A DNA stretch of 16,976 bases from a virus (Duplodnaviria; Heunggongvirae; Uroviricota; Caudoviricetes): the IMG/VR virus record IMGVR_UViG_2913112809_000005; one strand, 5' to 3'. The notes under the pieces were generated by a model. The model saw only the letters and a program-made list of their open reading frames with translations, did no database searches and was not told the origin of the DNA. The first letter of the stretch is position 1. Every line of letters begins with the position of its first letter. The position numbers and the translations under genes were made by a program. Shown here in pieces: positions 1,516 to 16,976 of the stretch.

Positions 1516-1971
1516 TTACGGATGGGATTGCCAGCTACTTACTAAGGCATACAAGTGATTTGGTGAGTATCGCCAGCTATCTTTTAATTGCAGGAATTCA
1601 GCACAAAACTCACTGCAAAACAGGCGATCGCGCTGTTCTTTATTGCCGGTGATAATTCCTAAGGCTCCGCGCCAGTCATAGCGTTTGCCATCATGTTTAC
1701 GGAAAAAAGCTTCCACATCCTGAAGATTGGCCTGGAGCGGTAGCATATCCCACTTGTCTGGAGGTAATGGCATTATCTTTCCCCGAACGCCTCGATCGCG
1801 CAGAGATGCGGAGTAACAAAGGTAACTCTTTTCGCCATGTACTACGGCTAATTCACAGTGGGAATAACTACCACGTGTGATTTTGCGTGTAAGCCAGTCA
1901 GCCAGTCTCGCAATACCCCGGTGCTCTGTTCGGCCCTTATAACAAGCGAGCCAGACAGTGGTTTTACTCAT
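1516..1971 (-). CDS. YiiX/YaeF-family (DUF830) permuted papain-fold protein, putative amidase/peptidase; no signal peptide
   Basis: 151-aa ORF translationally coupled to the upstream fibre-chaperone gene (4-nt overlap). Has the His-then-Cys permuted order with motifs SYSHCELAV, GKRYDWRGA and LFCSEFCAEF, matching from memory the YSH, KPYDF and CSE motifs of E. coli YiiX/YaeF. Last gene before the operon terminator. Confidence 0.55.
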   Translation of the reverse strand: MSKTTVWLACYKGRTEHRGIARLADWLTRKITRGSYSHCELAVVHGEKSYLCYSASLRDRGVRGKIMPLPPDKWDMLPLQANLQDVEAFFRKHDGKRYDWRGALGIITGNKEQRDRLFCSEFCAEFLQLKDSWRYSPNHLYALVSSWQSHP

Positions 1972-2573
1972 GGTTGCCAGCCTGTGGAGTAATCGTAGTC
2001 GAGCACCGCCTGAATATCGTCCAGAGCTTCCACTGCTGCGATATGGCGCTGGGCGTTGGCGAACAAGCGCATATCGTGATCCATTGTTACCGATTCAAAC
2101 TGGGCAGCGATTTCGTTGGTTAACTCGATCAGACCGTGGTTTTTGGTCTGCCACATTAAACCTGCCGGGATCTGCTTCGCCAGGCCCATTTTGGTTAACG
2201 ACATCTGCTGGATACGGCTGTTTGTATCACTGTGGAAGTGATGGTTATTGATGATGATGTAGTCTACCGTTATTTCATCTCGTCGATTTTTTATTTCCTG
2301 TGTAACCTGGGTCTTGGTATTCTCTAGTGCAATGGTAAATAACGTTTTGTCATATACCCATTTATCATTCTCTAAGATATAAAAGTTATCCGGAGGTGGT
2401 GTGGTGATAATTTTGAATGGGTCAAGACATATCCAGCAGATATTATCCTTTAATTTCCATTGCTCATCATTTACTGGTATTACCGAGTCCAGTAACACAA
2501 CATTTAATAAAGAATCGTCTATCCAGTCAATAACTTCAAAAGTTACTGGATTGTAATATGCATATTGTGTCAT
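1968..2573 (-). CDS. Putative tail-fibre assembly/chaperone protein (position-based call; C-terminal half possibly DUF4376-like)
   Basis: 201-aa ORF starting 4 nt after the tail-fibre stop on the same strand, the canonical position for a fibre chaperone. 5' half is visibly AT-rich and 3' half GC-rich, suggesting mosaic origin. Confidence 0.45.
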   Translation of the reverse strand: MTQYAYYNPVTFEVIDWIDDSLLNVVLLDSVIPVNDEQWKLKDNICWICLDPFKIITTPPPDNFYILENDKWVYDKTLFTIALENTKTQVTQEIKNRRDEITVDYIIINNHHFHSDTNSRIQQMSLTKMGLAKQIPAGLMWQTKNHGLIELTNEIAAQFESVTMDHDMRLFANAQRHIAAVEALDDIQAVLDYDYSTGWQP

Positions 2574-2577
2574 ATTT

Positions 2578-4131: not shown

Positions 4132-4133
4132 AA

Positions 4134-4781
4134 TTACTCCGGGTAAATAGATGTAATTTCAAGGCTCCATTGCCCTGTTCCGTAATAAATCGATGTGTTG
4201 TGCTGTACTTCCCGTATCTGGAAAGGTAAAACCGTCGTCAGTTCACCACCATAAAGTGCACAGCCAATAACAGGAATAGCACTTTGGTTAATGATCCAGA
4301 CGATTAATGCTTCCAGTTTTGAACGTGTGTTTTTATATTCATGAATGAGTTCTACCAAATCATTGAAAAGGTTTTCATCCATACCTTTATCCACCAGCTC
4401 TATATCCACCTTAAAAAAATAAGCCCTTCCCCCATATTCAAACCATTCTGAAATAGTTCCGGGTAATGAGAGTATTTCCAGCACCCGCCGCACCGCCCAA
4501 ATTGTTCCTTTATATTTATGCAGTTCAATGGCTTGTTTAATTAACTCGCGTTTCTCCCGCTCATCGGTGGTAAATAACCAACCTTCCAGCCCCTGAACGT
4601 GAAATTGTTCTGCAAGGGCTGGTAATGCCGAAGCATCAACCAGGTCGACCAGATAAACCATCAACGCCGTCAGATCGAGTTGGGCAAAACGCTCGGCGGC
4701 GATGTTTGCCAGAATGGAAAAACGCTCATCGCTGGCAAGCGGCGGCGGTGGCAGCAATTTATCCATCGCTGACTCCGGCAA
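4134..4781 (-). CDS. Baseplate protein, P2 gpI family (Mu gp48-like)
   Basis: 215-aa ORF with the characteristic N-terminal LLPPP..S....LA motif of gpI-family proteins; sits between gpJ and the tail fibre. True start may be the internal Met at about 4766 (MDKLLPPPP), which would remove the overlap with gpJ. Confidence 0.8.
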   Translation of the reverse strand: MPESAMDKLLPPPPLASDERFSILANIAAERFAQLDLTALMVYLVDLVDASALPALAEQFHVQGLEGWLFTTDEREKRELIKQAIELHKYKGTIWAVRRVLEILSLPGTISEWFEYGGRAYFFKVDIELVDKGMDENLFNDLVELIHEYKNTRSKLEALIVWIINQSAIPVIGCALYGGELTTVLPFQIREVQHNTSIYYGTGQWSLEITSIYPE

Positions 4782-5874
4782 TCGTGACGTCTATTGCGGT
4801 GCATTCCGCCCACTCATGCGCCTGCAAAATACGTTTTGTAGGCATATTCAGCGCAACGTCATAGACGCCATCGACCTGTAACACTTTGATTATCTGGTTT
4901 GGCACAATGTCCTGCCCCAGATGTTTCTGCCGCTGTTGCGTCCAGAGGCTAATCGCTTTACGCGCCGCAGCCAGCGTTGTCTCCTGATCGGCGGTGGTAA
5001 ACAGCATTAGCTGCGCACGGATCTCATACGGCACTCGAAGAGCGCATTTCGCACTCACTTTGTCGGTCAGCGGACGTTTTTTCTCCTTGCTAACCTCCTG
5101 TTCAATTTGCGCGAGCAGTTCCACTCCCGGCAGACCATTCAGCGTTAGCGGGTAGATCTCCACGCAGCCTTCTGGCAATCCCTCGTCCGGCCCCAGTACT
5201 GAAACGTCAATAATCGACTGGCTAACAGAAAGCGTATGGAAGCGGTATGCGCCATAGCTGCCCGCATTACTAAAGCTTTCTGGTGCCAGTTGGATACGCT
5301 GGCGCAATGCGTCATCGCTCTCTTCACCGCAGCCGCCCGTTGACGCAGTCAGGTTGGTTACGTTGATGTCATAATGACCAATCCTGTCGACCAGTGCGCT
5401 AATTTGTGCAGGCTGCCAGCCGTTACCCTGTTCACCTGCTGCGAGGCTGGTGGCAGGAACGGCGATATGCAAACTCCTGGCCGGAAGCAGAACATCTTCA
5501 TCGGTGGCGAACATCACGCTATCAGAGGCACTGGCCCGCGTCCCCTGGGGAATCAGGATATTGCTGGTATACGCACTGACGACCGAAAACTGCAACGTCG
5601 TTTTTGCCGGTTGTGCAGGCAAACGGTGAACGCCCACCAGCTCCCCTAAATAATCCAGCATTGGCGCGCGGGAATACGCGACCAGGTTTTGTTTCGCCGC
5701 TTCCTGAATGGCGATGCGTACAAGGTTTTCACGATAGGCAAACAGGTCGATGAGCAACCGCTCAGCCTGTGCAGGATAGAGTTTTTTACCGCTGGCATCT
5801 TCGTATTGCGCAATCATCTCACTGGTAATTTGCGCTGGATCGCGGTCAATAAAATTGGGTTCGGCTATCGCCAT
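4759..5874 (-). CDS. Baseplate protein, gpJ family (Mu gp47-like, T4 gp6-like wedge)
   Basis: 371-aa ORF in the conserved position between gpW and gpI; size and order match Baseplate_J proteins; overlaps both neighbours in the operon. Confidence 0.8.
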   Translation of the reverse strand: MAIAEPNFIDRDPAQITSEMIAQYEDASGKKLYPAQAERLLIDLFAYRENLVRIAIQEAAKQNLVAYSRAPMLDYLGELVGVHRLPAQPAKTTLQFSVVSAYTSNILIPQGTRASASDSVMFATDEDVLLPARSLHIAVPATSLAAGEQGNGWQPAQISALVDRIGHYDINVTNLTASTGGCGEESDDALRQRIQLAPESFSNAGSYGAYRFHTLSVSQSIIDVSVLGPDEGLPEGCVEIYPLTLNGLPGVELLAQIEQEVSKEKKRPLTDKVSAKCALRVPYEIRAQLMLFTTADQETTLAAARKAISLWTQQRQKHLGQDIVPNQIIKVLQVDGVYDVALNMPTKRILQAHEWAECTAIDVTIAGVSDG

Positions 5875-6224
5875 AACACCTCCGTTGAGTTGATTACGCC
5901 GTCAGCGGCGCGCCATTGCACACGTAACGTCAGATGTTCACCGTCGATTACAGGTGTCACCTTCAGCAACCGACAGCGCGGTTCCCACTGGCGAATGGCT
6001 TCCACCGACTCCCGTACCACATGCGGGATTGCCCGCTCGATGGGGTAATCGATGTAGTGCCACAAATTGCTGCCAAACAGCGGTCTGTGGGGATCACTGC
6101 CGCGCGGTGTACGCAGAATGATGTGTATTGCCTGGTGAATATCATCCAGTCCGCAGACGTATTTTTCAGGCCGCTGCAAGGCCGGTTGCCAGTGCAGCGT
6201 TGAGGGTCGTGTTTTTGTGTTCAT
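5865..6224 (-). CDS. Baseplate protein, GPW/gp25 family
   Basis: 119-aa ORF of the size and position of P2 gpW / T4 gp25 / Mu gp46 homologues, between the spike and gpJ. Confidence 0.75.
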   Translation of the reverse strand: MNTKTRPSTLHWQPALQRPEKYVCGLDDIHQAIHIILRTPRGSDPHRPLFGSNLWHYIDYPIERAIPHVVRESVEAIRQWEPRCRLLKVTPVIDGEHLTLRVQWRAADGVINSTEVLWR

Positions 6225-6297
6225 GAGGGTATTTTCGCCCTGAACGGGCTGCGGGGATATTAAAGCGATTTAGAAAACTGATTGATTAAAAAGAGAA

Positions 6298-6317
6298 AAC
6301 CCGCCATCAGGCGGGTT
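6298..6317 (-). terminator. Intrinsic terminator/attenuator between gpV and gpW
   Basis: 8-bp GC-rich stem AACCCGCC-tgat-GGCGGGTT, 5 nt downstream (minus strand) of the gpV TGA stop at 6323-6325, followed on the minus strand by TTCTCTTTTTAATCAATCAGTTTTCT. Confidence 0.6.
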
Positions 6318-6322
6318 AAACG

Positions 6323-7024
6323 TCAGTGTGAATGGTGGTTGGAGTTGCCACCGCTGTCCTGCAATGCGCCGCTGGCCTGAACGTTGCCGATCACGTTGAC
6401 ATTGCCAGTTATTGTGGCGGCGTTACCGATGCCTCCACTTCCTGCCATCCCGCCAAGCCAGGTGAGTTTTTTCATTACCGTCACGTTACCAGTAAAGGTG
6501 CTCATGGGCGCATCTACCGTCACTGCTGCCGCTTTAACATCGACCTTAGTGGCGTCGATGCTGACATCGGTCGCTTTAACATCGACAGTATCGGAAGTCA
6601 CGATGACCTGTTGGGCTTTAATCTCAACGTTGGGCGATGTCAGGCTGGTACGGTCGATAACCTCAATCACGATTTTCTCGATACCGCCGTTAATCGTCAG
6701 CTGGTGCGTGCTGCGGTCATATTCAAACGCTGCGCCATCAGAAAACTGGACGTAACGTTTATCGCGCGAGGCCACAGGCGCGGTGTCAACCGTAGAATAA
6801 ACTGCGCCCAGCACCACGCCATCTTCACCGTTATTGTCCAGCAGAACTTCCACTTGCTCGCCCATATCCGGTAGCCAGTAGTCTTTATTGTCCTGGGAAT
6901 TGCGTTGAAGTACCGCAAGCCAGTTGCTCTTCAGATTGTCACACTCCGGAAGCGTGACTCGCACCCGAACGCTGGTTTCGTCAATATCGCTGATAATCCC
7001 CGTTTGCCGGGTTACTCCTTTCAT
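6323..7024 (-). CDS. Baseplate central spike, gpV family (Mu gp45-like), with His-rich C-terminal tip
   Basis: 233-aa ORF with an N-terminal OB-fold-like region and a C-terminal repetitive beta-helix-like segment (VDVKATDVSIDATKVDVKAAAVTVDA), ending ...GGNSNHHSH. AGGAGG RBS 7-12 nt upstream. Confidence 0.8.
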   Translation of the reverse strand: MKGVTRQTGIISDIDETSVRVRVTLPECDNLKSNWLAVLQRNSQDNKDYWLPDMGEQVEVLLDNNGEDGVVLGAVYSTVDTAPVASRDKRYVQFSDGAAFEYDRSTHQLTINGGIEKIVIEVIDRTSLTSPNVEIKAQQVIVTSDTVDVKATDVSIDATKVDVKAAAVTVDAPMSTFTGNVTVMKKLTWLGGMAGSGGIGNAATITGNVNVIGNVQASGALQDSGGNSNHHSH

Positions 7025-7033
7025 ATTTCCTCC

Positions 7034-8074
7034 TTACTGGCTGGTCGCTGGCCCGCGCGACACGTCGATTTCAGTGGTATAGCCGCTGCGCACAAAACTG
7101 TGAGTCGATTTATCAATCAGCCACTGACCGGAAAGCACGCCAAAATCGGTCAGTTCAATTTTATTGCCCGCCGTCAGATCCGGGCAGCCCATCATTGTGA
7201 GCGTTCCGGTTTGCTGATATTCGTTGTGGCTGTCGAGTGCAGCGTTGGCCTTTGCCTGTGCTGCGCCAACGTCCGTCGCCCGACTGTTCAGTTTTAGCGT
7301 GTCGGCACTGGTGCCGACTCCACGGGCAGACGGTTTTTGCTGGCTGTCGTGAGTGTAGATAACCAGTTCTTTTTTCTTACTATTTTGATGCTGTACGGTG
7401 GCGTTTTTGTAGATACGGTTAATGGTATCTTTGAAGGTGAAATGCGAAACGTCTTTGCGGTTGATCTTTTTAACCGACGCCAGGCAGCGCAGCGTGGGTA
7501 AATGCGAAAAAATCAGCTCTTTGGTGCTCACCTTTACTGCATAGCCATATTCGCAGGCCAGGCGCTTGAGAAATCCAACATCGGTTTCGCCGTACTGTGT
7601 CACCCGGTCAATCGTCAGCGGCTCGATTTTGCCCACCAGCTTTAGGCCGTGAGTTTGTGCGATACGGCTGGCGATAGCCGAAAGCGTCGTTTCTTCAAAA
7701 CCCTGGCTGTTACGGGTGCGCAGCGCCTGATTGACGGAAGTGGCGATGCCATCAATATTTACCGTAGAAGGTGGCGCTGAAATGTCGATTTTATCAATAA
7801 TATACTGACCACAATCGAGCAGCTTTTCCCCCTGATAACCCATATGCAGCGCCAGCGTATCGCCTTTGCCGGGATACCACTCTTTTATCCAGCGTCCATC
7901 AGTGTCATCCAGTGTAATTGCGATGGTATCTGACTCGTTTTTGATGCTGTCGTGGTAACTGATGCTGGTGACATAGGGTGTGATGTCATAAGTGATATCT
8001 TTATGCCCATACCAGAGGGTAAAAATGGGCGTGAGTGTGGCAAAGACGCCACCAGTTACGCTTATCTCAGCCAT
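7034..8074 (-). CDS. Baseplate hub protein, P2 gpD family (late control gene D protein; Mu gp44-like)
   Basis: 346-aa ORF of the size and position of gpD/gp27-like hub proteins, directly before the spike. Confidence 0.8.
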   Translation of the reverse strand: MAEISVTGGVFATLTPIFTLWYGHKDITYDITPYVTSISYHDSIKNESDTIAITLDDTDGRWIKEWYPGKGDTLALHMGYQGEKLLDCGQYIIDKIDISAPPSTVNIDGIATSVNQALRTRNSQGFEETTLSAIASRIAQTHGLKLVGKIEPLTIDRVTQYGETDVGFLKRLACEYGYAVKVSTKELIFSHLPTLRCLASVKKINRKDVSHFTFKDTINRIYKNATVQHQNSKKKELVIYTHDSQQKPSARGVGTSADTLKLNSRATDVGAAQAKANAALDSHNEYQQTGTLTMMGCPDLTAGNKIELTDFGVLSGQWLIDKSTHSFVRSGYTTEIDVSRGPATSQ

Positions 8075-8274
8075 GGTGGGATCTCCGATAAGGTTTTATT
8101 GACGGAAATGACCGGAATAATGAGCTGAATACCGGAAGGCAGCACCGGGTAAATGGCGACATGTGGATTGGCGGCGATTATGCGTTCATAAGCCAGCGCA
8201 TCACCGTAGTAATGCCATGCCAGATTATCCCAGCGTTCGCTGTCGGTGGTGATATGTTCAAGGTATCGCATCAC
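8062..8274 (-). CDS. Tail protein X (P2 gpX family, LysM-like)
   Basis: 70-aa ORF containing the conserved gpX motif (WD.LA..YYGD....E.II.ANP); ATGA-type overlap with the upstream gpU-like gene. Confidence 0.75.
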   Translation of the reverse strand: MMRYLEHITTDSERWDNLAWHYYGDALAYERIIAANPHVAIYPVLPSGIQLIIPVISVNKTLSEIPPWLR

Positions 8275-9224
8275 CAGCTCCTCGTAATGGTCGCGGCAGC
8301 AAACTGGCTCACTGTGGGAGTGGTTTGTTGTACCGTTGTTCGTGCCTGATCAACCAACGTTGCGGCTTTATCGAACGTCGCTTGGGCGATGCCGCTGGTA
8401 ATGTCGTCGAAAAGCGCCTGAGCATGGTCAACCAGCGTACTGGCGTCATTGGCGCAGTCCCGGATACCTGGCATGTTACCCAGTAAAGCTTTAATCTGCG
8501 CCGACAACGCTTTTGGGAGTCCTGCCAGCGTTTGCAGATCCGTTGGCTGTTTAAACAGGGTTTCGATGGCGTCGATTGTCTTTTTCAATGACGTAATTAT
8601 CTTTTCACACTTTTCTTTTAACGCTTTGGCCTCTTTAATCATTGCTTTCACTTTTGCCACCGTTTTTTTAATATCTTCAATGGCTTGTGTCAGTTCATCC
8701 AGCATCTCTTTGGCCTTACGCATACCTTCTTCAATGGCGTTTAATATCTGATCAAACCAGGACTCCACCATGTCGGGAAAATTGCTCGCCTTTTCCTCAA
8801 TGTTAGGCTCCTGGGTGGTAATCGCCGGAGGTAAAAGTGGATTTTTAGGATCGCCGGTGTACTCCTGGAGCGACATCGTTCCGTTTTGGGCAATCACATT
8901 GCCCCAGGGATCGGTGTGCTGGTGGGTGGCGGTTAGCTCTGTAATTACAAACCAGCCGCGATAATCGCCATTGCCAAATACCAGTGCCATCGCCTTGTGA
9001 GCAAGCATGGCTTCACGCAGTCGATTCAGCTCTGTTGTGGGCTGGCAAAACTGGCTGTGCAGGGAAAATTCCAGCGCCAGTATATCCAGCTTATCGCCAA
9101 TAAACTGCACGCCGGGCTTGCCTTCTATACGGGCATGTGTGGCGTAATCCACGCCCATTGTGCTTTTAAAGCCGTCCCAGAATGTGACAACCTTAAATTC
9201 AATCTCTCCTAAAACGGCATACAT
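8271..9224 (-). CDS. gpU-like tail protein with a roughly 175-aa C-terminal alpha-helical/coiled-coil extension
   Basis: 317-aa ORF. First about 140 aa follow the P2 gpU pattern (M..LG...F......F..........G.P..QF.G...D...L...L......L..L...........G.G...G.FVITEL). The remainder is Lys/Glu/Ala-rich with heptad-like periodicity (KAKEMLDELTQAIEDIKKTVAKVKAMIKEAKALKEKCEKI...). Stop/start overlaps the tape measure gene. Confidence 0.7.
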   Translation of the reverse strand: MYAVLGEIEFKVVTFWDGFKSTMGVDYATHARIEGKPGVQFIGDKLDILALEFSLHSQFCQPTTELNRLREAMLAHKAMALVFGNGDYRGWFVITELTATHQHTDPWGNVIAQNGTMSLQEYTGDPKNPLLPPAITTQEPNIEEKASNFPDMVESWFDQILNAIEEGMRKAKEMLDELTQAIEDIKKTVAKVKAMIKEAKALKEKCEKIITSLKKTIDAIETLFKQPTDLQTLAGLPKALSAQIKALLGNMPGIRDCANDASTLVDHAQALFDDITSGIAQATFDKAATLVDQARTTVQQTTPTVSQFAAATITRSW

Positions 9225-11584
9225 CAGGCATACCCCCGGCGCTGTTGTTGCGCCATTACGTCGTTAATTATTCTTTCCAGTTCGCGTTTACTCATCGTCA
9301 ACACGTTCTGAATCTCTTTAGTATTGTTTGGTCCGTTACCCTGCACGGTAATCTGTGGCGAAAAAGTCACCTGGACTTTTCCAGGGGAACGGGAGGGTAG
9401 CGTCGCCGGTTTGGTTACGGATTTATCTGGTAAAGAGGTCGACGCGAGTTTTGCGGCAGGCACTGATGACGGCGTTGTCGTTTTGCTGGATGGCGCGAGT
9501 TGTTTCCCCACTGGAGGCGTTAAAATCGCACCGGCAACGCCTGGAACAACGGTCGCGGGGGAGACTGAGGCAGAATTAGTGGTGCCTGTAGCAGCCGCAG
9601 CCGATCCTTCTGTGCTGATACCCATTGTGGATTTTAGCCAGTCTGGTATGGCGTTTTTGACCTGGTCAATAATGCCTTTCAGAGCGGGAAAAGCATTCAT
9701 TATGCCGTCAGCCAGGCTACCCAGTATATTGCTGCCGAACTCGCTAAAACTCGCAGGCATCTCAACACCAAACCAATTCATCACTCCGGCAAAGGCGCTG
9801 TAGAACAGCCCCAGTGGCGACCAGTCGCAAATCAAACGGCTAATACCAGCAATACCGCCATTAAAGGCCGTTGTGATACGCAGCCAGATGGCGGAAAAGA
9901 ACCTGGAGATAGGTTCCCAGTTGCGATAAATCAGATAAGCAGCGCCCGCAATCGCAGTGATGACCAGACCAATGGGATTCATCAATAACACCCGGCCTAG
10001 CGAGAGAACGGTTCGACCAACCAGTTTCAATGCTCCGAGCAGGCTACGACCAAGCAGTTGCGTTAGCCATTTTGCGCCGCCACCCAATGACTTAACCGCC
10101 GATAACACCTTACTCGCTGCGCCGCCGAGCGCCAGACTTGCCCTGACTTTCAGGAAGATATCGACCAGACGAATTAACGGCGAGGCGATGAAGTTCGCGC
10201 CCAGCTTTAAAACATTCAGCGCGCCGTTAAACAGCCAAATCGCCCCGACGATTTTCGCAATGTTTTGCACCAGCGCCGGGTGTTCACGTAGCCATGCGCT
10301 GAACTGGCGAACAACCGGAGTAAGGCTTTGCGCCAGCTCGCCAATCAGCGGCATTAATTGCAAGCCAATGCTGAGCCATAAATCATTTAACGCCAGCTGT
10401 AACGCTTTAGTTTGTTCAATGGGCGAGGCCATCTGCGCAGAAAAGTCAGCGTCAATCAGATTCTTACTGCTGGCTTGCATGGCAGAGGCTTTTAACTGGC
10501 GATATTCCTCCATATTCGCCAGCACAGGTGCCAGGAATTCCACTGTTTGCGCATCGCCGAACATTTCGCCCAGATTAAACTGCGTCACCATCGATTGCAG
10601 CGCAGTGCTGCGAGCAGATAAATCTTCAATCTTCATGGTGCGTTTGAAGGTGTCGAGGATCGCCGGATTCATCTTCTCAAGCTGCATTTGCACGATATGA
10701 GTCATGGCTTCGCTAACACCCATACCGTTTTGCTGATGCTCAAGCAGAGAACCTTGCAGATCAACGCCCTGGCTGGCGAACCAGTTATCGGTTTTTTTCG
10801 AAAAGGTGGTTTGCAGAAAGTGGTCGAAATTCTCCGCCGCCGCACTGGCACTGGCCCCGTTTTTTATGGCGATCTGCATGGTGGCGGTCAGTTCAGCCAT
10901 ACCTTCCAGACCCTGAGCGCCGATTTTACCTGCAAATTTCTCTATCCACTGCGTTTGTTCGGCAACGGCAGGCCCACCGCTTTTGCTAATGCCATACATC
11001 ATGTTTTGCGCGGCGTGGAAATTTTCTGGGGCAATATTCAGTCGATCATGAGTCGCGAGCGCGGCATTCGCCCACGTTTCAGCACTTTCGCGCGTGGCGG
11101 TGGCAGCTTTGGCGATCTCCGGCATATAACGGTTGAGATCCTGCATCGACGACAAATTGCCTTCGATCAGCGTTTGGGCTGCGTTCTGTAAGGTGGTCTG
11201 CTGCTGGTTAAAATCCATGCTCCAGCCGCGCAGATTAAGGCTGAGCGTCTCGCGGGTTGTAGCATTCATCCCACCTTTGGTCGCCATATTGACCATGTTG
11301 TCCTGGAACTCATATGGCAACTTCCAGTCGGGGGCTTCAACATTGAATACCTTGCTAAATTGCCCGGCAAATGTTTGGGTTTTCTCCATTAGATCAGCGC
11401 GGTTCCGGCTATTTTCCTCCAGGCGGAGAGCAGAATCGGCAAGTTGCTGCGTTAGTTTGATTACTGTCGCTTGCTGAGAAGAGAGAGCTAACAAAGTTCT
11501 GGCGTTGAGTGAGCCGTAACGGGCTATTGCCTGCGTCAACGTCTCATTACGCGCCTGAAGCTGGGTAATAATATCGTTGGCCAA
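9224..11584 (-). CDS. Tail tape measure protein
   Basis: 786-aa ORF, largely alpha-helical with internal hydrophobic segments, between the chaperone gene and gpU as in all long-tailed phages. Apparent initiator is TTG at 11584; the first in-frame ATG is about 66 codons in, so the exact start is uncertain. Confidence 0.85.
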   Translation of the reverse strand: MANDIITQLQARNETLTQAIARYGSLNARTLLALSSQQATVIKLTQQLADSALRLEENSRNRADLMEKTQTFAGQFSKVFNVEAPDWKLPYEFQDNMVNMATKGGMNATTRETLSLNLRGWSMDFNQQQTTLQNAAQTLIEGNLSSMQDLNRYMPEIAKAATATRESAETWANAALATHDRLNIAPENFHAAQNMMYGISKSGGPAVAEQTQWIEKFAGKIGAQGLEGMAELTATMQIAIKNGASASAAAENFDHFLQTTFSKKTDNWFASQGVDLQGSLLEHQQNGMGVSEAMTHIVQMQLEKMNPAILDTFKRTMKIEDLSARSTALQSMVTQFNLGEMFGDAQTVEFLAPVLANMEEYRQLKASAMQASSKNLIDADFSAQMASPIEQTKALQLALNDLWLSIGLQLMPLIGELAQSLTPVVRQFSAWLREHPALVQNIAKIVGAIWLFNGALNVLKLGANFIASPLIRLVDIFLKVRASLALGGAASKVLSAVKSLGGGAKWLTQLLGRSLLGALKLVGRTVLSLGRVLLMNPIGLVITAIAGAAYLIYRNWEPISRFFSAIWLRITTAFNGGIAGISRLICDWSPLGLFYSAFAGVMNWFGVEMPASFSEFGSNILGSLADGIMNAFPALKGIIDQVKNAIPDWLKSTMGISTEGSAAAATGTTNSASVSPATVVPGVAGAILTPPVGKQLAPSSKTTTPSSVPAAKLASTSLPDKSVTKPATLPSRSPGKVQVTFSPQITVQGNGPNNTKEIQNVLTMSKRELERIINDVMAQQQRRGYA

Positions 11585-11675
11585 AATTGTTTCTCTTTAA
11601 TTATTGATAATGGCCCACTGGTTATTTTTCTAAAAAAGGGGCTGGGAAGAAATAAACCTGGCGGGCTTTGAAGAA

Positions 11676-11698
11676 CTCGCAGACATCAGGTCTGCGAG
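11676..11698 (-). other. Strong stem-loop in the gpE-tape measure intergenic region
   Basis: Perfect 9-bp inverted repeat CTCGCAGAC-atcag-GTCTGCGAG; on the minus strand it encloses the stop codon (11686-11688) of the +1 frame that overlaps the 3' end of the gpE gene. Confidence 0.6.
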
Positions 11699-11773
11699 CC
11701 ATATTCGATCTTTATTTGGTCGCTGGCTTCATCCAGCCAGTTGCTAAAGTCATCTATGGTGAGCGCGTCTATC

Positions 11774-12091
11774 TCACTGGGTGGAAAGCGAAACCATCTC
11801 GCCAGTAGCGCCATTGCCTGCCATAGCTGGGGAGGATTCTGTAACCACGGTAAGCATGGATTGAAATCGTTTCTGCAATGCCTGGTAATCCAGCAAATCC
11901 ATTTCAGCTAAATCTTCTGGCACCAGTCCGGTCATCGCCGCCATTAGCGGTTCATCCCACTCTTCGGGTTTTTCGCTGATCCGGCGCGCGTTGCGCATAT
12001 CTTTTACTTTCAGGCGACGTAATTGCAGCGAGTCGATAGTATTTCCTGCTGCCGACGTAAATGGGAACTGTAAGATATAATGCTCTTTCAT
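11774..12091 (-). CDS. Tail assembly chaperone, P2 gpE family
   Basis: 105-aa acidic ORF between the tube and tape measure genes, the conserved position of the frameshifted chaperone pair. An alternative reading frame stays open past its stop (see findings). Confidence 0.7.
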   Translation of the reverse strand: MKEHYILQFPFTSAAGNTIDSLQLRRLKVKDMRNARRISEKPEEWDEPLMAAMTGLVPEDLAEMDLLDYQALQKRFQSMLTVVTESSPAMAGNGATGEMVSLSTQ

Positions 12092-12117
12092 TTTGTATCC
12101 TTATTTATGTTGCGAAG

Positions 12118-12137
12118 TTCGGGGCCGTAGCCCCGAA
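12118..12137 (-). other. Stem-loop immediately downstream of the tail tube gene
   Basis: 8-bp GC-rich inverted repeat TTCGGGGC-cgta-GCCCCGAA between the tube stop (12141-12143) and the gpE start (12091); no clear U-tract follows, so more likely an mRNA-processing/stability or partial-attenuation element than a full terminator. Confidence 0.45.
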
Positions 12138-12140
12138 TAA

Positions 12141-12665
12141 TTAGCCACCGATGTTATTGCGATAGGTACTTAATTGATCCACGCCGTTAACCCGAAAAAT
12201 ATTCGCCATATAATCAAGTTCAAGCAGCGTTTCACCATCGACCACTTGCTTAATATAAGTACAGCCAAAGGCGCTGCTGAATTCCGGGTTTTCATTCTGT
12301 TTAAATGTGCCCAGTGGATTCTTTTTAAACATCACGGTTAAATGTGTCACTAACGCTAATTGATTCGCTTTCCCCTGGGAGTTATAGCAATCAATACTGG
12401 AGCGGCACTGTAATGCTACCGCCTGCCACGGGTTTGCCGTTTTACGCATTACGTCCTGATAAAAGGAGTTCCATTTAATTTCCCCCTCCAGTTTATCGAA
12501 ACCAGCCGGGAGTTCGATTTTGCCGACCATACCCAGTGCCTTATGCTCTTGCATAATTAAACTGACATCAGGCAATTTAATTTCGGTTGCACGACCTAAA
12601 AGGTTATTACCATCGAGATAAATATTGGCGTTGGTAATACGGTTAATTTGAATTTTTCCAGCCAT
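12141..12665 (-). CDS. Tail tube protein (P2 FII family)
   Basis: 174-aa ORF; size and N-terminal pattern (N.N.YLDG...LG...EIKLP) match FII-type tube proteins; start overlaps the sheath stop. Confidence 0.8.
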   Translation of the reverse strand: MAGKIQINRITNANIYLDGNNLLGRATEIKLPDVSLIMQEHKALGMVGKIELPAGFDKLEGEIKWNSFYQDVMRKTANPWQAVALQCRSSIDCYNSQGKANQLALVTHLTVMFKKNPLGTFKQNENPEFSSAFGCTYIKQVVDGETLLELDYMANIFRVNGVDQLSTYRNNIGG

Positions 12666-14095
12666 TAGCTATTGCTCTCCAGAGAGACTAAATATTCAGA
12701 AGTAATTTCAGTTTCAAACGTCAGACGTTCCAGCGGCGGCGGCGGGGTGAATTTATAGCTCAGCAATAAATGACCGGCGCTGAGTTCAGCCGGTGAATTT
12801 CGTGCCGGATCGTACCAGCACTCAAAGCCAAGCAGTGCGCCGTCGGCAATTAGTTTTCGGCCCCAGGTATTTACCGATTCGGTCAGTGCGTCAATAATTG
12901 CCTGATTAATAGGCATATCAATATACTGCTGACTGAAATAACGGATTGACTCATTGATTACATCGCCTGTCCGGCGGACGTTTTCAAAGTTACGCATATG
13001 GGTCACGGTAGGCCATGCCGCTGTGCGGTTACCCCACAAGCGCAGACCAGAACCGTAACTATTGAAAATAGTGGTAATGCCGTTTTCGTTGAGCTGATTC
13101 ACTTCGCTTTGTGGATCATCAATCATTGCGGAAAGCGAACGTTCAATACCGGTAATACCCTGAATTTCCTGGTTTGAGTTGCTCCACCAGAAACCTTTTT
13201 CGAGGTCTACTTTGGCACGTAGCCCGGCAGCGCGCGAAGAGAGTGGTTCGAGAACTTCCTGGTTAGTGATGCCATCGTAAACTTTGACGTGTGGGTAACA
13301 TAAACGCACACGATCAGAGCTGGTATTGAAGTTGATAGCCCCTTGCGAACCGCGTCCAGCCAATACCTGCTGGAATGTCGTCCCAATCGGAGCATCAATG
13401 TAGGTAATCGCACCGAGTTTTTCCGCTTGTGCAATCAGCTCAGTAGTTACTGATTTTTGCGTACAAAACACGGGAGCAAGCAGGATTTTGGCGTAGAAAC
13501 CGTACAGGTTATAGGTGTCCTGAAGGAGTTTCATCCCCGTGCGGTCGCCTGCGGTATTTAGGGCACCGATAATATCGGCTGCGGTGACCTTTGTAGGGTC
13601 GCACCAGGAATAATAGGCGCAAACTTTCGCTCCAGGAGGAATGTCGGCTCCTTTACGAGTGATTATGCCTGTTTGTTCATCTACGCTAAATGCTGTGGTG
13701 TTAAAGGTTGATGAATTTGATGAAGAGGGCTTTAGTACCACGTTACGCACATTGCGGTGAGCGAGCTTCGCCTGGTTGTTAGCATCAAAAGTGATACTCT
13801 CATTGCTGATGCTGGAGCTATGTTTTGCCGGATCCAGCACGTTAATCACCACCACCGTACCGGCACCGTGGTCATAAATCGCCTTCAGTGCCTGTGGGAT
13901 CGTAAAGTTAGCCAGAGTCGAGCCAAACTGCGCAGCATCGCTTTCAGAAAGACATAATGTTGGTTTATTTACCGGACCACAGGGGGCCGTACCGATTAAA
14001 GCGATGACGGCGGATTTTACCGCTTTAACCGGACGAGGGCCGGTTTCAATTTCAATGGTTTCTACACCGTGCAGGTAATTAGCTGCCATGTACAA
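12665..14095 (-). CDS. Contractile tail sheath protein
   Basis: 476-aa ORF directly upstream of the tube gene; size and position are typical of myovirus sheath proteins (P2 FI / Mu L class). Confidence 0.85.
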   Translation of the reverse strand: MYMAANYLHGVETIEIETGPRPVKAVKSAVIALIGTAPCGPVNKPTLCLSESDAAQFGSTLANFTIPQALKAIYDHGAGTVVVINVLDPAKHSSSISNESITFDANNQAKLAHRNVRNVVLKPSSSNSSTFNTTAFSVDEQTGIITRKGADIPPGAKVCAYYSWCDPTKVTAADIIGALNTAGDRTGMKLLQDTYNLYGFYAKILLAPVFCTQKSVTTELIAQAEKLGAITYIDAPIGTTFQQVLAGRGSQGAINFNTSSDRVRLCYPHVKVYDGITNQEVLEPLSSRAAGLRAKVDLEKGFWWSNSNQEIQGITGIERSLSAMIDDPQSEVNQLNENGITTIFNSYGSGLRLWGNRTAAWPTVTHMRNFENVRRTGDVINESIRYFSQQYIDMPINQAIIDALTESVNTWGRKLIADGALLGFECWYDPARNSPAELSAGHLLLSYKFTPPPPLERLTFETEITSEYLVSLESNS

Positions 14096-14276
14096 TTTCC
14101 TCTACGTTATTTTGTTCTTCCTGAGTGATGACAGGAGTCAGATGATTGCGGGCAATCATGGTTATGACCCACTCGTTGTCTTCTGGCAGATCAATTTCAC
14201 TGTTCGGCCACAATAAGATTTCTTGTCCGTCGGCAAGGGTGACGCCGCTTGCCGGGCCGTTGTAGATGTATTTCAT
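14079..14276 (-). CDS. Small conserved tail-region protein (Mu gp38-like position)
   Basis: 65-aa ORF, coupled by a 4-nt overlap to the upstream gene and overlapping the sheath start. Confidence 0.45.
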   Translation of the reverse strand: MKYIYNGPASGVTLADGQEILLWPNSEIDLPEDNEWVITMIARNHLTPVITQEEQNNVEEIVHGS

Positions 14277-14728
14277 TCAGTTTCCTCGTAATTAACTTCC
14301 GTAAGCAGGGGAAGATCCGTGCTTTCCTGTTCAGCGATAAACAGCGAGCTGGTCGCCATTTCCAGGATGTAGCGGCAGAAACCGCCGCTCTCACCCGTAT
14401 TAATTTCTTTTTCAAGCCAAAGCAGACGATCGCAATCAGGAAGCTGAAGGCCACCCAATGCTCTGCGTATGCGATCAAGAGCGTTTAACGCGTCACAATT
14501 TTTGCCAACAATAACGGTGGCGGTTAAGCGGAGTATTTGCTGTTGCACGATGGCATCACTGCTTTCGGGCGTGGCAAAGAAAGAACCGCTATAATTAATA
14601 ATCACTGCAACTTGCTGTGTCTGTGGAATATATTTCTGGGCATCCGTAGCTGAAATAAATACGTCCATTTCGGGGTTGTGTTCACGTAATCTGGTCACAA
14701 CAGAATTCATTACAGATAAAATTTCCAT
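14273..14728 (-). CDS. Putative tail completion/terminator-type protein (Mu gp37 / DUF1834-like); first gene of the tail operon
   Basis: 151-aa ORF with an AGG-containing RBS upstream; position and N-terminal pattern (ME.L..M...VV.RL) recall Mu gp37-family proteins. Functional call is tentative. Confidence 0.45.
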   Translation of the reverse strand: MEILSVMNSVVTRLREHNPEMDVFISATDAQKYIPQTQQVAVIINYSGSFFATPESSDAIVQQQILRLTATVIVGKNCDALNALDRIRRALGGLQLPDCDRLLWLEKEINTGESGGFCRYILEMATSSLFIAEQESTDLPLLTEVNYEETE

Positions 14729-14842
14729 ATGGGTTGTACCTTAATTACCGCTCACTTCGTTATCGTTGAAATATATTCTGAAGCAGTGAAGGTGAAGAAT
14801 CTTTTAATGTAATTTAGAGAAAAAATTGAATGGCTATAAAAA

Positions 14843-14870
14843 ATCCCCACACTTACGTAAAGGTGGGGAT
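14843..14870 (-). terminator. Intrinsic terminator after the lysis cassette (potentially bidirectional)
   Basis: 8-bp stem ATCCCCAC...GTGGGGAT with an internally palindromic loop, beginning 4 nt after the TAA stop at 14875-14877; followed on the minus strand by TTTTTATAGCC and on the plus strand by GTATTTAATA. Confidence 0.7.
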
Positions 14871-14874
14871 GTAT

Positions 14875-15189
14875 TTAATAGCTGCCACGTTGTAACAGCT
14901 CGATTTTGCTATATAAGGCATCCAGCTTTGCTTCTAATACTGCTTGCCCACGAAGATAATCTTCTCTGCGGACATAATGCAGCGGAAGCTCGGCACGAAA
15001 TTCAAGAAACTCTCTTTCCAGTTTCGACCAACTTGTTTCTGATTCCCTGCGGGCATTTTCCAGAGACTCAAAACGCTCATTAAGTCGTTTTTCAATTTGC
15101 GCTAACAGCAGTTTTCCGGCAGCAAACATTAATCCAACGAAGGAAAGCATAAGGGAGATCACTTCCCAAAAATCGATACTGAGTTTCAT
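14875..15189 (-). CDS. Membrane-anchored coiled-coil protein, candidate spanin-like/lysis accessory protein
   Basis: 104-aa ORF with one N-terminal hydrophobic helix (FWEVISLMLSFVGLMFAAGKLLL) followed by a charged helical region; GAGGGG RBS; directly downstream of the lysin gene. Confidence 0.45.
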   Translation of the reverse strand: MKLSIDFWEVISLMLSFVGLMFAAGKLLLAQIEKRLNERFESLENARRESETSWSKLEREFLEFRAELPLHYVRREDYLRGQAVLEAKLDALYSKIELLQRGSY

Positions 15190-15201
15190 CGGCCCCTCTG
15201 A

Positions 15202-15807
15202 TTAGTGAAGACAGCTTGCCTGTCCCCAGAGTAAATAGCGGGCGGCGTGTAGATAGAGGATCATCTTTGGATAGCGACGATTTTCTCGCCAGTTAGCAGC
15301 GCTGCGCCCGGCGTTGACTCGCTCGACATGACCAAACCAGCTAGTGGCATCTAACCCTTTGGATGCAGCTAGTTTTTTATCCCGGTTAACCCACCCCTGA
15401 CCGCCGTTATAGGCGCTTAGGGTAAACGCCATACGCTGACAGTCATTTTTCGCAGAGATGTTTTTCCACAAATGCTGGTCATATTGCACCAGCGCGCGAA
15501 TCGCCCAGGTTGGGTTATACGGTTTGTTTTCACGCAATTGTGGATACAACTGGCTTATCCATGTCGCTGTAGCAGGCATAAATTGCGCCATACCTTGTGC
15601 GCCAACGGGGGAACGTACCATTGGCTGCCAGGCGGACTCCAGGTGTAATTGCCCGGCAAAGTCGGCCACTGGGGCATTCAGCCCCCAGACTTCTCGAGCG
15701 GTACGAATTAGTTCGTTTCGCCATGCCAGAGAGGCTCGCGGCGGTTCAGAGGCGTTAAGCGGGAAAAGAACGAAAATAATCATAGACGCGATATATTTCA
15801 GCCACAT
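15202..15807 (-). CDS. Lytic transglycosylase (SLT domain) lysin with N-terminal signal/SAR-like hydrophobic leader
   Basis: SLT catalytic motifs LHLESAWQP and AQGMAQFMP. Best start is ATG at 15807 (MWLKYIASMIIFVLFPLNA...), 2 nt after the stop of the upstream membrane-protein gene; the longer ORF to 15885 would overlap that gene by 76 nt. Confidence 0.7.
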   Translation of the reverse strand: MWLKYIASMIIFVLFPLNASEPPRASLAWRNELIRTAREVWGLNAPVADFAGQLHLESAWQPMVRSPVGAQGMAQFMPATATWISQLYPQLRENKPYNPTWAIRALVQYDQHLWKNISAKNDCQRMAFTLSAYNGGQGWVNRDKKLAASKGLDATSWFGHVERVNAGRSAANWRENRRYPKMILYLHAARYLLWGQASCLH

Positions 15808-15809
15808 CA

Positions 15810-16097
15810 CTATAGCCCTAAGGCGACGGAAAGACAGACGGCGGCAACGATGATGGCGCGGCGAATCATTGCCGCCGCGCAGCAACGCGGTTCCTTCCAG
15901 GGGCTAAAAGAGTCAGGCCGTGCCCAGGGGAACAAACTGCGATCGAGCCAGTATCCCAGCACCGCGGAAAGCGAAACCAGGCTTAGTTTATAAATGACGA
16001 CCGGGATCTGTGCTGAAGAGGTCCAGCCGATCACGACAAACAGCGCGACGGAAGCGACCAGCCAGCCGGAAAGCCGGGGAAAAGTGACTTTTTTCAT
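15810..16097 (-). CDS. Small membrane protein with 2-3 transmembrane segments, holin candidate
   Basis: 95-aa ORF with AGGAG RBS 8 nt upstream of the ATG; hydrophobic segments LVASVALFVVIGW, IPVVIYKLSLVSLSAVLGYWL and AIIVAAVCLSVALGL; first gene of the lysis cassette, directly before the lysin. Confidence 0.5.
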   Translation of the reverse strand: MKKVTFPRLSGWLVASVALFVVIGWTSSAQIPVVIYKLSLVSLSAVLGYWLDRSLFPWARPDSFSPWKEPRCCAAAMIRRAIIVAAVCLSVALGL

Positions 16098-16393
16098 ACG
16101 ATATCTCCTGATAAGTGAGCGTTTAGTGTCGTCAGAACCCTCCAGTGAAGAATGAAAAAAGCTTTAATAAATAAGTTTAAAAAATAGATTCTCTATAAAT
16201 GAACAAGCCCGCTAATAAATCGACTCATCAATTAAAGAGCAAAAGGTGACCTGGCGAATAAGCGCGTCATTATGCAGGGGAAAGATGATGGTGGATCGTA
16301 GGAATAGTCTATAGTTATTTGATTTTTAAAGTTTGTTTAAGAAAGTCAGCTACTGTGAGGGAAACGATCTTTTAACACTACAGGTAAAAATAA

Positions 16394-16413
16394 TACTGTA
16401 TACGTATACAGTA
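16394..16413. promoter_or_regulatory. LexA (SOS) box, near consensus
   Basis: TACTGTATACGTATACAGTA, a perfect CTGT-N8-ACAG palindrome matching the gammaproteobacterial LexA consensus TACTGTATATATATACAGTA at 18 of 20 positions. Lies in the divergent intergenic region; a TTGACA hexamer sits 21 bp to its right (16435-16440) and a TATTAT hexamer overlaps its left end on the minus strand. Confidence 0.7.
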
Positions 16414-16634
16414 TAGTGTAAAATGATACTCCTGTTGACAAGAAACATAATGCAAACAATATATTTATTTCGTGAATTTATGGCGTTCATTAATACTAAA
16501 AATTTATATTTTGGGTGATTATTTATTTGTTTGTTGAATGTATTGAGTAGCAGTAATGACAACTGCTTAGCGTATATCCGTGGTTTTACACGCATCGGGT
16601 CTTATTCAGGATGCAAGATATATGGAGATGAAAA

Positions 16635-16976
16635 ATGATACGAAAATCAAAAGAGATGGCCCGGACACCGGAGATTATTAACGACCTGGCTTTTCATGCA
16701 TCGCAAGTTCTGATTGAAAGCATCATTCTCGACAGTTCATCGGCAGAAAATGTGGGTTTTGCCATTGCCGACCGAATGATGCGTAACTGGGGCGGACAAA
16801 GCATCTATTTCCCTAAGGGGATCTCCGGACGAGCATCGGAGCGTGACTACCAAATCTATAGCGAGTGCGATGGGCGCAACTACGCTGAATTAGCGAAGAA
16901 ATATAATCTGACGCTGCAATGGATTTATAAGATAGTCAAACGTGTACATACGGAGAAGCAGCAGAGTCGTATGTAG
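16635..16976 (+). CDS. Mor/C-family transcription activator (phage Mu middle/late activator family)
   Basis: 113-aa ORF with GGAG RBS. C-terminal region (GGQSIYFPKG...ERDYQIY.ECDGRNYAELAKKYNLTLQWIYKIVKRV) closely parallels the Mu Mor/C DNA-binding region (GGGQVYIPRG...RDLRIWNDFNGRNVSELTTRYGVTFNTVYKAIRRM). Complete ORF ending with TAG at the window edge. Confidence 0.7.
   Translation: MIRKSKEMARTPEIINDLAFHASQVLIESIILDSSSAENVGFAIADRMMRNWGGQSIYFPKGISGRASERDYQIYSECDGRNYAELAKKYNLTLQWIYKIVKRVHTEKQQSRM

Follow-up and report, generated by a model that had tools for sequence, protein, structure and literature searches.

Phage lambda mutants without spanins still lyse under shear but stop as spheres when Mg2+ is millimolar. 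The last step of Gram-negative lysis is regarded as dependent on spanins; 13% of phages are spanin-less, and how the outer membrane gives way in spanin-less systems is posed as a question (Kongari et al. 2018, PMC6139136). The phages BcepMu and phiE255, and likewise B3 and the JBD phages, have embedded two-component spanins (Kongari et al. 2018, PMC6139136), rz/rz1 are missing from the R-pyocin clusters of Pseudomonas aeruginosa (Ghequire et al. 2015, PMC4684702), and in phage Mu a cytoplasmic protein tethered to the membrane, gp25 (DUF2730), is needed for release of the signal-anchor-release (SAR) endolysin (Chamblee et al. 2022, PMC9239132). Among described cassettes that of Burkholderia phage BcepMu runs gp21 (holin), gp22 (SLT endolysin), gp23 (Rz), gp24 (Rz1) and gp25, with the same layout in Escherichia phage PhiKM, Klebsiella phage KP12 and Pseudomonas phage B3. 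Here we analyse the lysis genes of a 16,976-nucleotide (nt) stretch of Caudoviricetes DNA (IMG/VR record IMGVR_UViG_2913112809_000005, the whole of which we call the window), whose best overall explanation, to which we give a probability of about 0.62, is a spanin-less tailocin lysis operon with an accessory protein, like gp25 of BcepMu (gp25-like), that acts on lysis.

The lysis operon

Judged from its genes, this is a lysis operon, and the cluster to which it belongs is a domesticated, headless R-type tailocin cluster of the BcepMu/carotovoricin type. The holin, SLT and gp25-like genes are predicted to form a self-contained three-gene operon, which an AT-rich promoter region precedes and a strong terminator closes, with the following features (window positions, strand in brackets; aa, amino acids; TM, transmembrane):

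16115..16199 (-): AT-rich element upstream of the holin (…ATTTTTTAAACTTATTTATTAAAGC…TTCTTCAC…), candidate Mor-dependent late promoter, conserved across five genera
15810..16097 (-): predicted holin, 95 aa, Holin_2-3 family, with an AGGAG Shine-Dalgarno sequence and three hydrophobic segments by hydropathy
15202..15807 (-): predicted SLT-family lytic transglycosylase (endolysin), 201 aa, with an export leader (PF01464, PHROG 669, Slt70 alignment)
15751-15807 (-): SLT leader, residues 1-19, from leader comparison across orthologues
15637-15639 (-): codon of the putative catalytic Glu57 of the SLT, from the ESAW motif aligned with Slt70
14875..15189 (-): bitopic membrane protein of 104 aa, gp25-like, orthologous to BcepMu gp25 and B3 ORF28 (PHROG 462)
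about 15103-15171 (-): TM segment of the gp25-like protein, one hydrophobic segment at about residues 7-29
14836..14870 (-): predicted intrinsic terminator closing the operon (CCCCACC…GUGGGG stem and U6), from RNA folding

An earlier note on this DNA, made without database searches, had taken the region for a lysis cassette of a multi-TM protein, a leader-bearing lytic transglycosylase and a short membrane protein, and profile searches bear out the cassette. The 95-aa protein is small, lies directly upstream of the endolysin and matches Holin_2-3 above the gathering threshold (PF13272, E = 4.1e-27, 94.9 bits, cut-off 27) as well as PHROG 1528 'holin' (E = 5.4e-35); we read it as a PF13272 holin, for which hole formation is predicted. 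The charged C-terminus by which a standard holin might have been recognised is absent, the protein ending in a hydrophobic segment (...VCLSVALGL). Its TAG stop (15812-15810) is followed by TG and then by the SLT ATG at 15807, which gives the 2-nt spacer already noticed.

That ATG (201 aa) is the SLT start in the Prokaryotic Genome Annotation Pipeline (PGAP) annotation of E. coli and in every orthologue, the longest mechanical open reading frame (ORF) extending to an upstream TTG at 15885. The product was correctly called a lytic transglycosylase: it matches PF01464 (E = 5.9e-14, 52.1 bits, cut-off 21.3) and PHROG 669 'endolysin' (E = 8e-60), and its residues 52-142 align with residues 473-561 of E. 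coli Slt70, placing ESAW (Glu57) on the Slt70 ESAW that contains E478 and the downstream GAQGMAQFMP and SAYNGG motifs of PF01464 on their Slt70 counterparts. E478 is the catalytic residue of Slt70, and the window enzyme looks catalytically competent. The gp25-like gene starts 12 bases past the SLT stop, behind an AGAGGGG ribosome-binding site.

Related loci and the tailocin cluster

One genome per bacterial species was scanned, giving 295 relatives of the gp25-like gene, and 80 loci were retrieved and sorted into three classes by tblastn with reference proteins. Class A comprises the window together with loci of Salmonella, Superficieibacter (two), Phytobacter, Dryocola and Lelliottia; it has an SLT-to-gp25-like gap of 16-28 nt, neither Rz nor gp26, Gp37 and sheath genes directly after, and a Mor match upstream in all loci except Lelliottia. 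The Enterobacter cloacae complex shows the class A layout (pgi-lysC-Mor-holin-SLT-gp25-like-Gp37). Class B, found in eleven Pectobacterium species, Samsonia and Lonsdalea, runs SLT, Rz/Rz1, gp25-like, gp26, Gp37 and sheath and has no terminase, and class C consists of full prophages with gp26, TerS and TerL. The order in phages BcepMu, phiE255, B3, PhiKM and KP12 is holin, SLT, Rz with embedded Rz1, gp25, gp26, TerS, TerL.

With the BcepMu-type cassettes the window shares a PF13272 holin, a leader-bearing SLT that is 56-66% identical over the catalytic part and, at 44-50% identity, a gp25-type protein; gene order and tight packing are also alike. Unlike them it is without gp23/gp24 (about 600-650 nt) and gp26, its head and packaging genes are gone, and its holin has no counterpart of the roughly 20-residue loop insert of the BcepMu holin (95 vs. 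115 aa). A headless relative is the carotovoricin Er-type tailocin cluster of Pectobacterium, reportedly described by Yamada and colleagues in 2006, a study cited in PMC13195805 and PMC4684702. Carotovoricin Er-type clusters begin with a holin and a lytic transglycosylase (PMC13195805), and we equate the Pectobacterium class B loci with this cluster because they are conserved across the genus and their holin, transglycosylase and tail gene content is as described there. Both this cluster and that of the window are headless contractile-tail clusters with holin and lytic transglycosylase genes at the start; the sheaths are 75% and the gp25-like proteins 66-67% identical, and in both the gp25-like gene lies just before Gp37 and sheath. 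Pectobacterium keeps Rz with an embedded Rz1 (LLVASC lipobox) and gp26, whereas the window does not; the Pectobacterium cluster also has no Mor gene within 6 kb upstream and occupies a different chromosomal site. The window cassette is best read as a BcepMu/carotovoricin-type cassette minus Rz/Rz1 and gp26, which are missing across a whole lineage within the Enterobacteriaceae.

Downstream of the lysis operon lies the tail module, assigned with Pfam and the PGAP annotation of a 98%-identical E. coli locus:

1516..14728 (-): complete contractile-tail module, no head or packaging genes

Its order is Gp37, a 65-aa protein, sheath, tube, chaperone, tape measure, gpU-like, X, D, V, W, J and I, followed by an intact 517-aa fibre and a DUF4376 fibre-assembly protein. 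At the gene level this is an R-type tailocin, with sheath, tube, baseplate, fibre and lysis genes and no capsid, portal or terminase. The flanks of the cluster are chromosomal (lysC, pgi, yjbD, rluF), and it adjoins lysC in E. coli, Salmonella and Enterobacter, with the Mor gene next to lysC in all three. The Salmonella LT2 counterpart comprises STM4219 (Mor), STM4218 (holin), the SLT gene, the 104-aa gene and STM4215 (Gp37), the lysis genes being STM4216-4218; we found no functional description of the STM4198-4219 locus. The 'tailocin' of E. coli ST131 (PMC9205054) was considered and set aside, as it is a P2/R2-pyocin-like element and a different cluster.

Search for spanins

The earlier note could identify no outer-membrane lipoprotein partner, and none emerged here: the ORFs of at least 25 aa across the window include no such partner, and scanning all 16,976 bases for lipoboxes in six frames returned only weak antisense matches inside tail genes and no outer-membrane spanin (o-spanin). 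Within the third gene, where an embedded lipobox ORF had been proposed as a check, the only ORFs are a pair of short, overlapping ones on the minus strand, of 53 and 25 aa, both of which lack a signal sequence and a lipobox, and tblastn gave no Rz-like match in the window. A hidden o-spanin or unimolecular spanin (u-spanin) in the window was rejected on the ORF listing and the lipobox scan. The related loci, oriented and limited to the SLT-to-gp25 region, were scanned for lipoboxes on the plus strand with a more stringent pattern, which recovered an embedded proline-rich Rz1 lipoprotein in 64 of 67 loci with an Rz-sized gap (typically MLLSNTLTKKAKFSLCSACLLVASC/STTTP; here and below the slash marks the predicted cut), and because of this recovery the negative result in the window is meaningful. 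The same scan of 7 loci of the spanin-less lineage (Enterobacter lay outside it) found no spanin-type lipoprotein, its sole match being the lipobox leader of the SLT itself in one Superficieibacter strain.

The window thus resembles other spanin-less phages and tailocins in having no two-component or unimolecular spanin beside its holin-endolysin pair. It differs from them in that its loss can be dated against close Rz/Rz1-bearing relatives and is shared by several genera under purifying selection.

The gp25-like protein

The third protein was described in the earlier note as 104 aa with one TM helix and a coiled coil, and its size, single hydrophobic segment and helical character hold: an AlphaFold2 model (predicted local distance difference test, pLDDT, 80) has two long helices, 6-66 and 74-101, with a conserved loop between them. 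The conserved motif LPxxYVRREDYxRGQxVIEAKLDA is followed by the second helix. Against phage genomes, tblastn matched the protein to BcepMu gp25, phiE255 gp54, B3 ORF28 and the PhiKM and KP12 counterparts (44-50% identity), and it matches PHROG 462 (E = 6e-34); on this alignment and gene order it is an orthologue of BcepMu gp25. Neither Pfam, even at E <= 10, nor NCBIfam gave a match, and a sequence search of the PDB with the family returned nothing significant, the best hit being ATP synthase subunit b (E = 0.045), a composition-level match. The family is nonetheless large, with at least 1004 clusters at 50% identity in an exhaustive hidden Markov model search (E <= 1e-3) and no Pfam entry.

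The earlier note had also cast this protein as a short stand-in for Rz, which did not survive comparison. BcepMu gp25 and B3 ORF28 lie downstream of an annotated Rz (gp23 and ORF27), and the gp25-like gene sits directly after intact Rz with embedded Rz1 in BcepMu, PhiKM, KP12, B3, Ps60 and about 64 bacterial loci; because it follows intact Rz/Rz1 in these relatives, the protein is additional to spanins and not an alternative for them. It has no cognate o-spanin and neither homology nor positional equivalence to Rz, and the reading as a short inner-membrane spanin (i-spanin) was rejected on its orthology to gp25 and its co-occurrence with Rz/Rz1. Across the family the N-terminal flank is acidic, with 0-1 lysine or arginine (K/R), and 3-4 K/R follow the TM segment. 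These charges suggest, as inference only, that the helical domain is cytoplasmic (N-out/C-in), the opposite of an i-spanin.

The family is named 'lipoprotein' in PHROG 462 and in RefSeq (BcepMu gp25, B3 ORF28, JBD67; loci L002, 2501-2839, and L006, 2501-2890). This label is probably erroneous, a false lipobox arising from an FLGAC string that B3-type members carry within their TM segment; cysteine is missing at this position from the window protein and from most of the family.

Four kinds of endolysin gene precede the gp25-like gene: SLT, Phage_lysozyme (some with an N-terminal hydrophobic segment, some without one), Amidase_2 and GH19, the last a weak match that falls short of the Pfam cut-off. 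The gene immediately before the gp25-like gene encodes a TraR/DksA C4 zinc finger in many prophages, betaproteobacterial and other; it was confirmed with Pfam at L076, 5723-5998 (PF01258, E = 1.3e-9) and recognised by eye (CxxC...CxxC) at L081, L085, L088, L060 and L065, and is absent from the enterobacterial clusters.

Comparison with the Mu releasin

In Mu the order is lys (gp22), the gp23/23.1 spanins, gp24, gp25 (DUF2730), gp26 and gp27. In Mu-like phages DUF2730 genes are always found downstream of the endolysin, at most five genes away, and their endolysin partners are of many kinds (PMC9239132), a breadth that the gp25-like family shares. Both proteins have about 100 aa, an N-terminal TM segment and a helical C-terminal domain, and both are encoded just downstream of the endolysin/spanin genes and before gp26-TerS in Mor-regulated Mu-like elements. 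The gp25-like gene occupies the equivalent slot in BcepMu, B3, KP12, Yersinia and about 70 loci. However, Mu has no holin and its endolysin is a SAR muramidase, whereas the window has a holin and an SLT with a signal-peptide-like leader. We regard the gp25-like protein as a positional and architectural analogue of the releasin, membership in DUF2730 not being demonstrated.

The slot can be compared in two Pseudomonas phages, Fc02 and Ps60, whose holins are 100%, SLTs 99.5% and Rz proteins 67% identical. After Rz, Fc02 encodes a DUF2730 protein (Pfam E = 4.6e-9), whereas Ps60 encodes the gp25-like protein, the two being without similarity. We also observed that the holin, a 52-aa TM protein, the SLT and a 72-aa protein are essentially identical between Fc02 (L009, slot protein at 3224-3544) and Ps60 (L010, 3001-3390), and that the phages diverge from mid-Rz onwards, each with a different gp26, which places a mosaic junction inside the spanin gene. 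The annotated region of D3112 contained no type II DUF2730 gene, and Fc02 (Table S1 of PMC9239132) served instead.

The endolysin leader

The window SLT begins with the hydrophobic sequence MWLKYIASMIIFVLFPLNA/SEPP. In the seven class A orthologues the leaders precede a conserved mature-domain start, (E/Q)PP(R/A)A:

Leader 1: MWLKYIASMIIFVLFPLNA/S
Leader 2: MRYQYVCLVCAMTFLPADA/A
Leader 3: MWRTGMCVIGTLFMLPVNA/A
Leader 4: MWRSCICLLWMLALSANA/A
Leader 5: MRRKGLCVLCTLWVLPAC/A (lipobox)
Leader 6: MWLQYMSLLCLSVTLPAYS/V
Leader 7: …SCGPGIAVQA/A

In all seven a short n-region, carrying no more than a few basic residues, precedes a hydrophobic (h-) region of 12-15 residues; proline stands 3-7 residues ahead of the predicted cut in five of them, and a small residue occupies position -1 in 7/7 and position -3 in most. 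The window h-region, 13 residues long, has 15% G/A/S/T, against 55-65% in the SAR domains of P1 Lyz and R21. The call between signal peptide and SAR domain, made by eye, favours a secreted, processed SLT because of this low G/A/S/T content and the cleavable-Sec-signal pattern of the leaders. The leader thus looks like a cleavable Sec signal, and a SAR domain is disfavoured by composition, length and the conserved cleavage-like motif; of the two options that the earlier note had left side by side, the signal peptide is favoured and the SAR type is the less likely.

A lipobox was observed in the SLT leaders of Superficieibacter sp. (LPAC; L013, 5376-5984), Samsonia (AMAC; L027, 4769-5365) and Pseudomonas phage Fc02 (LSAC; L009, 1770-2399). 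The window SLT has a signal-peptidase-I-like site at the equivalent position, so that this one endolysin family seems to alternate between a soluble and a lipid-anchored form.

Selection on the lysis genes

The ratio of nonsynonymous to synonymous substitution rates (dN/dS) was calculated against Salmonella, Superficieibacter, Phytobacter and Dryocola where it was estimable (dS 0.9-2.4; some pairs were saturated and gave no estimate):

Holin: 0.05-0.09
SLT: 0.08-0.13 (Lelliottia 0.14)
gp25-like: 0.04-0.07
Sheath: 0.05-0.07 (Lelliottia 0.04)

All three lysis genes are under strong purifying selection (dN/dS 0.04-0.14), and since this holds across genera, the spanin-less three-gene operon is old and maintained and not a recent accident.

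Transcription units and regulation

The features that bear on expression, beyond those listed above, are:

16635..16976 (+): Mor-family transcription activator, divergent from the lysis operon (PF08765 Mor, E = 2.3e-37)
16394..16413 (strand not assigned): perfect palindromic SOS (LexA) box TACTGTATACGTATACAGTA, 20 bp, a consensus match in the Mor-holin intergenic region
16395..16422 (-): sigma-70-like promoter TTTACA-16-TACAGT directed toward the holin and overlapped by the LexA box, from a consensus scan
14759..14840 (-): second AT-rich element resembling a promoter, upstream of Gp37 and the tail operon that it heads, similar to the holin-upstream element

The E. coli LexA consensus is TACTG(TA)5CAGTA. 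The predicted LexA box lies in an intergenic region of 537 nt, and the window contains no second match (0.01 matches expected). Salmonella, Phytobacter and Dryocola share the box, which in Enterobacter is degenerate; it suggests that the cluster is under direct DNA-damage control. The -35 hexamer of the sigma-70-like promoter is conserved in a five-genus alignment. Local alignment of the two AT-rich elements scores 47 (shuffles 26.8±5.3, with 2/300 reaching 47), their shared pattern being TTTTTT..TAAA..TTA..ATTAAAG..TTCTTCAC, and Salmonella has a related TTTTTTCTCTAAA…ATTAAAAG stretch in the corresponding position upstream of Gp37. This suggests that the lysis and tail operons are driven by two similar, possibly Mor-dependent promoters. 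The terminator folds at -15.5 kcal/mol (z = -4.0; none of 200 shuffles was as stable); it was missed by a pattern scan, its 6-bp G+C stem, read by eye, enclosing 12 nt, probably beyond the loop limit of the scan. Lysis and tail genes may thus be separate transcription units split by this terminator.

Proposed lysis route and alternatives

Under our preferred reading, that of a spanin-less lysis operon with a gp25-like accessory, DNA damage would cause LexA to leave the SOS box and Mor to be made, and Mor would activate two similar late promoters, one for the lysis and one for the tail genes. The SLT would be exported by Sec, its leader probably cleaved, and the enzyme would wait in the periplasm while the Holin_2-3 protein builds up in the inner membrane, until triggering would collapse the proton-motive force and start murein degradation. 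The gp25-like protein, with its inner-membrane anchor, probably N-out, and its presumed cytoplasmic helical domain, would be an accessory with control over the triggering of the holin or the activation of the lysin, in the way that Mu gp25 acts on its SAR endolysin. Without a spanin the outer membrane would probably fail passively, by turgor or shear, after murein loss, or else give way through an unrecognised factor. A stronger form, in which gp25-like proteins are a second, sequence-unrelated class of releasin type that enables spanin-free release in Enterobacteriaceae tailocins, alone or with the exported SLT, seems doubtful to us.

Several observations weigh against this preferred reading. 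The gp25-like family is tied to lysis by its genomic setting only, and no remote homology to DUF2730 was detectable: BLASTP of the gp25-like protein against Mu gp25 gave no match, PF10805 was matched by 0 of 150 diverse family members, Foldseek against BFVD found nothing, and hhalign of 28- and 150-sequence gp25-like profiles against a Mu gp25 alignment (a narrow one, its search having given only close relatives, 23 proteins) and against the type II protein of Fc02 returned probabilities of 0.8%, 1.3% and 0.1%. The proposed topology follows from charge counts, a crude measure that mispredicts lambda Rz. Pseudomonas SLT leaders homologous to that of the window were classed as SAR by Chamblee et al. 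2022 (PMC9239132). The window region 14700-16976 is 95-99% identical to 197/5426 complete E. coli genomes (3.6%), so the cluster is carried by a small share of them, and we found no report of particle production or lysis by it in E. coli or Salmonella. Finally, the slot protein of Fc02 and Ps60 varies with gp26 and TerS and not with holin-SLT, and in phages it may belong to the downstream module.

This last point leads to the alternative that survives best, although we consider it unlikely: the gp25-like protein would be a membrane-anchored factor outside lysis, serving tail or late-gene assembly, regulation or anchoring, and its position would be inherited gene order. The co-variation in Fc02/Ps60 fits this, as do the TraR/DksA zinc-finger gene that parts the gp25-like gene from the lysis genes in many lineages and the want of homology to any characterised lysis protein. 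Three points oppose a place in the downstream module, namely that the gene survives in two kinds of headless cluster stripped of packaging and head genes, that it lies within the holin-SLT unit, before the strong terminator and apart from the tail genes, and that its product is membrane-anchored; moreover, the Mu protein encoded in that position has a proven role in lysis (PMC9239132).

Rather improbable is that the cassette is a decaying remnant in which loss of Rz/Rz1 made release inefficient, so that the missing spanin would need no mechanism. The cluster's presence in only 3.6% of complete E. coli genomes, tail-fibre pseudogenes in E. coli ws5-3, a gtrABC insertion in the baseplate region of Salmonella and one Enterobacter metagenome copy with a shortened SLT gene would be compatible with decay. 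But dN/dS in holin, SLT and gp25-like genes is as low as in the sheath across genera with saturated dS, lysC-adjacent synteny is kept in three genera, the LexA box, promoter elements and terminator are conserved, and in the window the fibre is intact and no part of the tail gene set is missing.

That the 104-aa protein is a minimal i-spanin-like or periplasm-facing (N-in/C-out) factor which replaces Rz/Rz1 and acts on the outer membrane alone is very improbable. In its favour, its gene directly follows the endolysin, a single N-terminal TM segment is joined to long helices, the window offers no other candidate for breaching the outer membrane and positive-inside counting is unreliable, as lambda Rz shows. 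Against it, the protein is orthologous to BcepMu gp25 and not gp23, its relatives occur beside intact Rz/Rz1 in 64 loci, no evident change in length or motif marks the spanin-less lineage (104 vs. 108-110 aa; invariant and near-invariant motif positions kept), its N-flank is acidic and nearly K/R-free with 3-4 K/R after the TM segment, and it has neither lipobox nor partner.

If the stronger, doubtful form is right, a release route of holin, secreted lysin and accessory would have been selected since before the divergence of Escherichia and Salmonella. In view of the arrest of lambda spanin mutants in Mg2+, the conservation of a spanin-less operon calls for an explanation. The loci offer a natural deletion series in tractable hosts, from full phages (Rz/Rz1, gp25 and gp26) through the carotovoricin type (all three) to the tailocin of E. 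coli, Salmonella and Enterobacter (gp25 only), and the three-gene operon could be cloned in E. coli as a test bed for spanin-independent release. The comparison would also give a first functional handle on a large unannotated family that in transposable phages takes the place of Mu's releasin, and it identifies a tailocin locus beside lysC in enteric bacteria with a predicted SOS box and Mor control.

Neighbouring genes and cluster ends

Two genes lie between the lysis operon and the sheath gene:

14273-14728 (-): Gp37-family protein (PF09646)
14079-14276 (-): conserved acidic 65-aa protein (PHROG 895, function unassigned)

Gp37 evolves much faster than its neighbours, with dN/dS of 0.15-0.26 and 35-62% identity across genera. 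At the other end, beyond the fibre-assembly gene, the window carries:

1-1047 (-): GT4 glycosyltransferase (PF00534, E = 3e-38)

The corresponding flank in E. coli ws5-3 (L001, 4657-7755) has slipin and nucleotidyltransferase genes, and its fibre genes are pseudogenes, while in Salmonella gtrABC is inserted between baseplate genes V and W. With flanks and insertions differing in this way, the distal end of the cluster is therefore variable.

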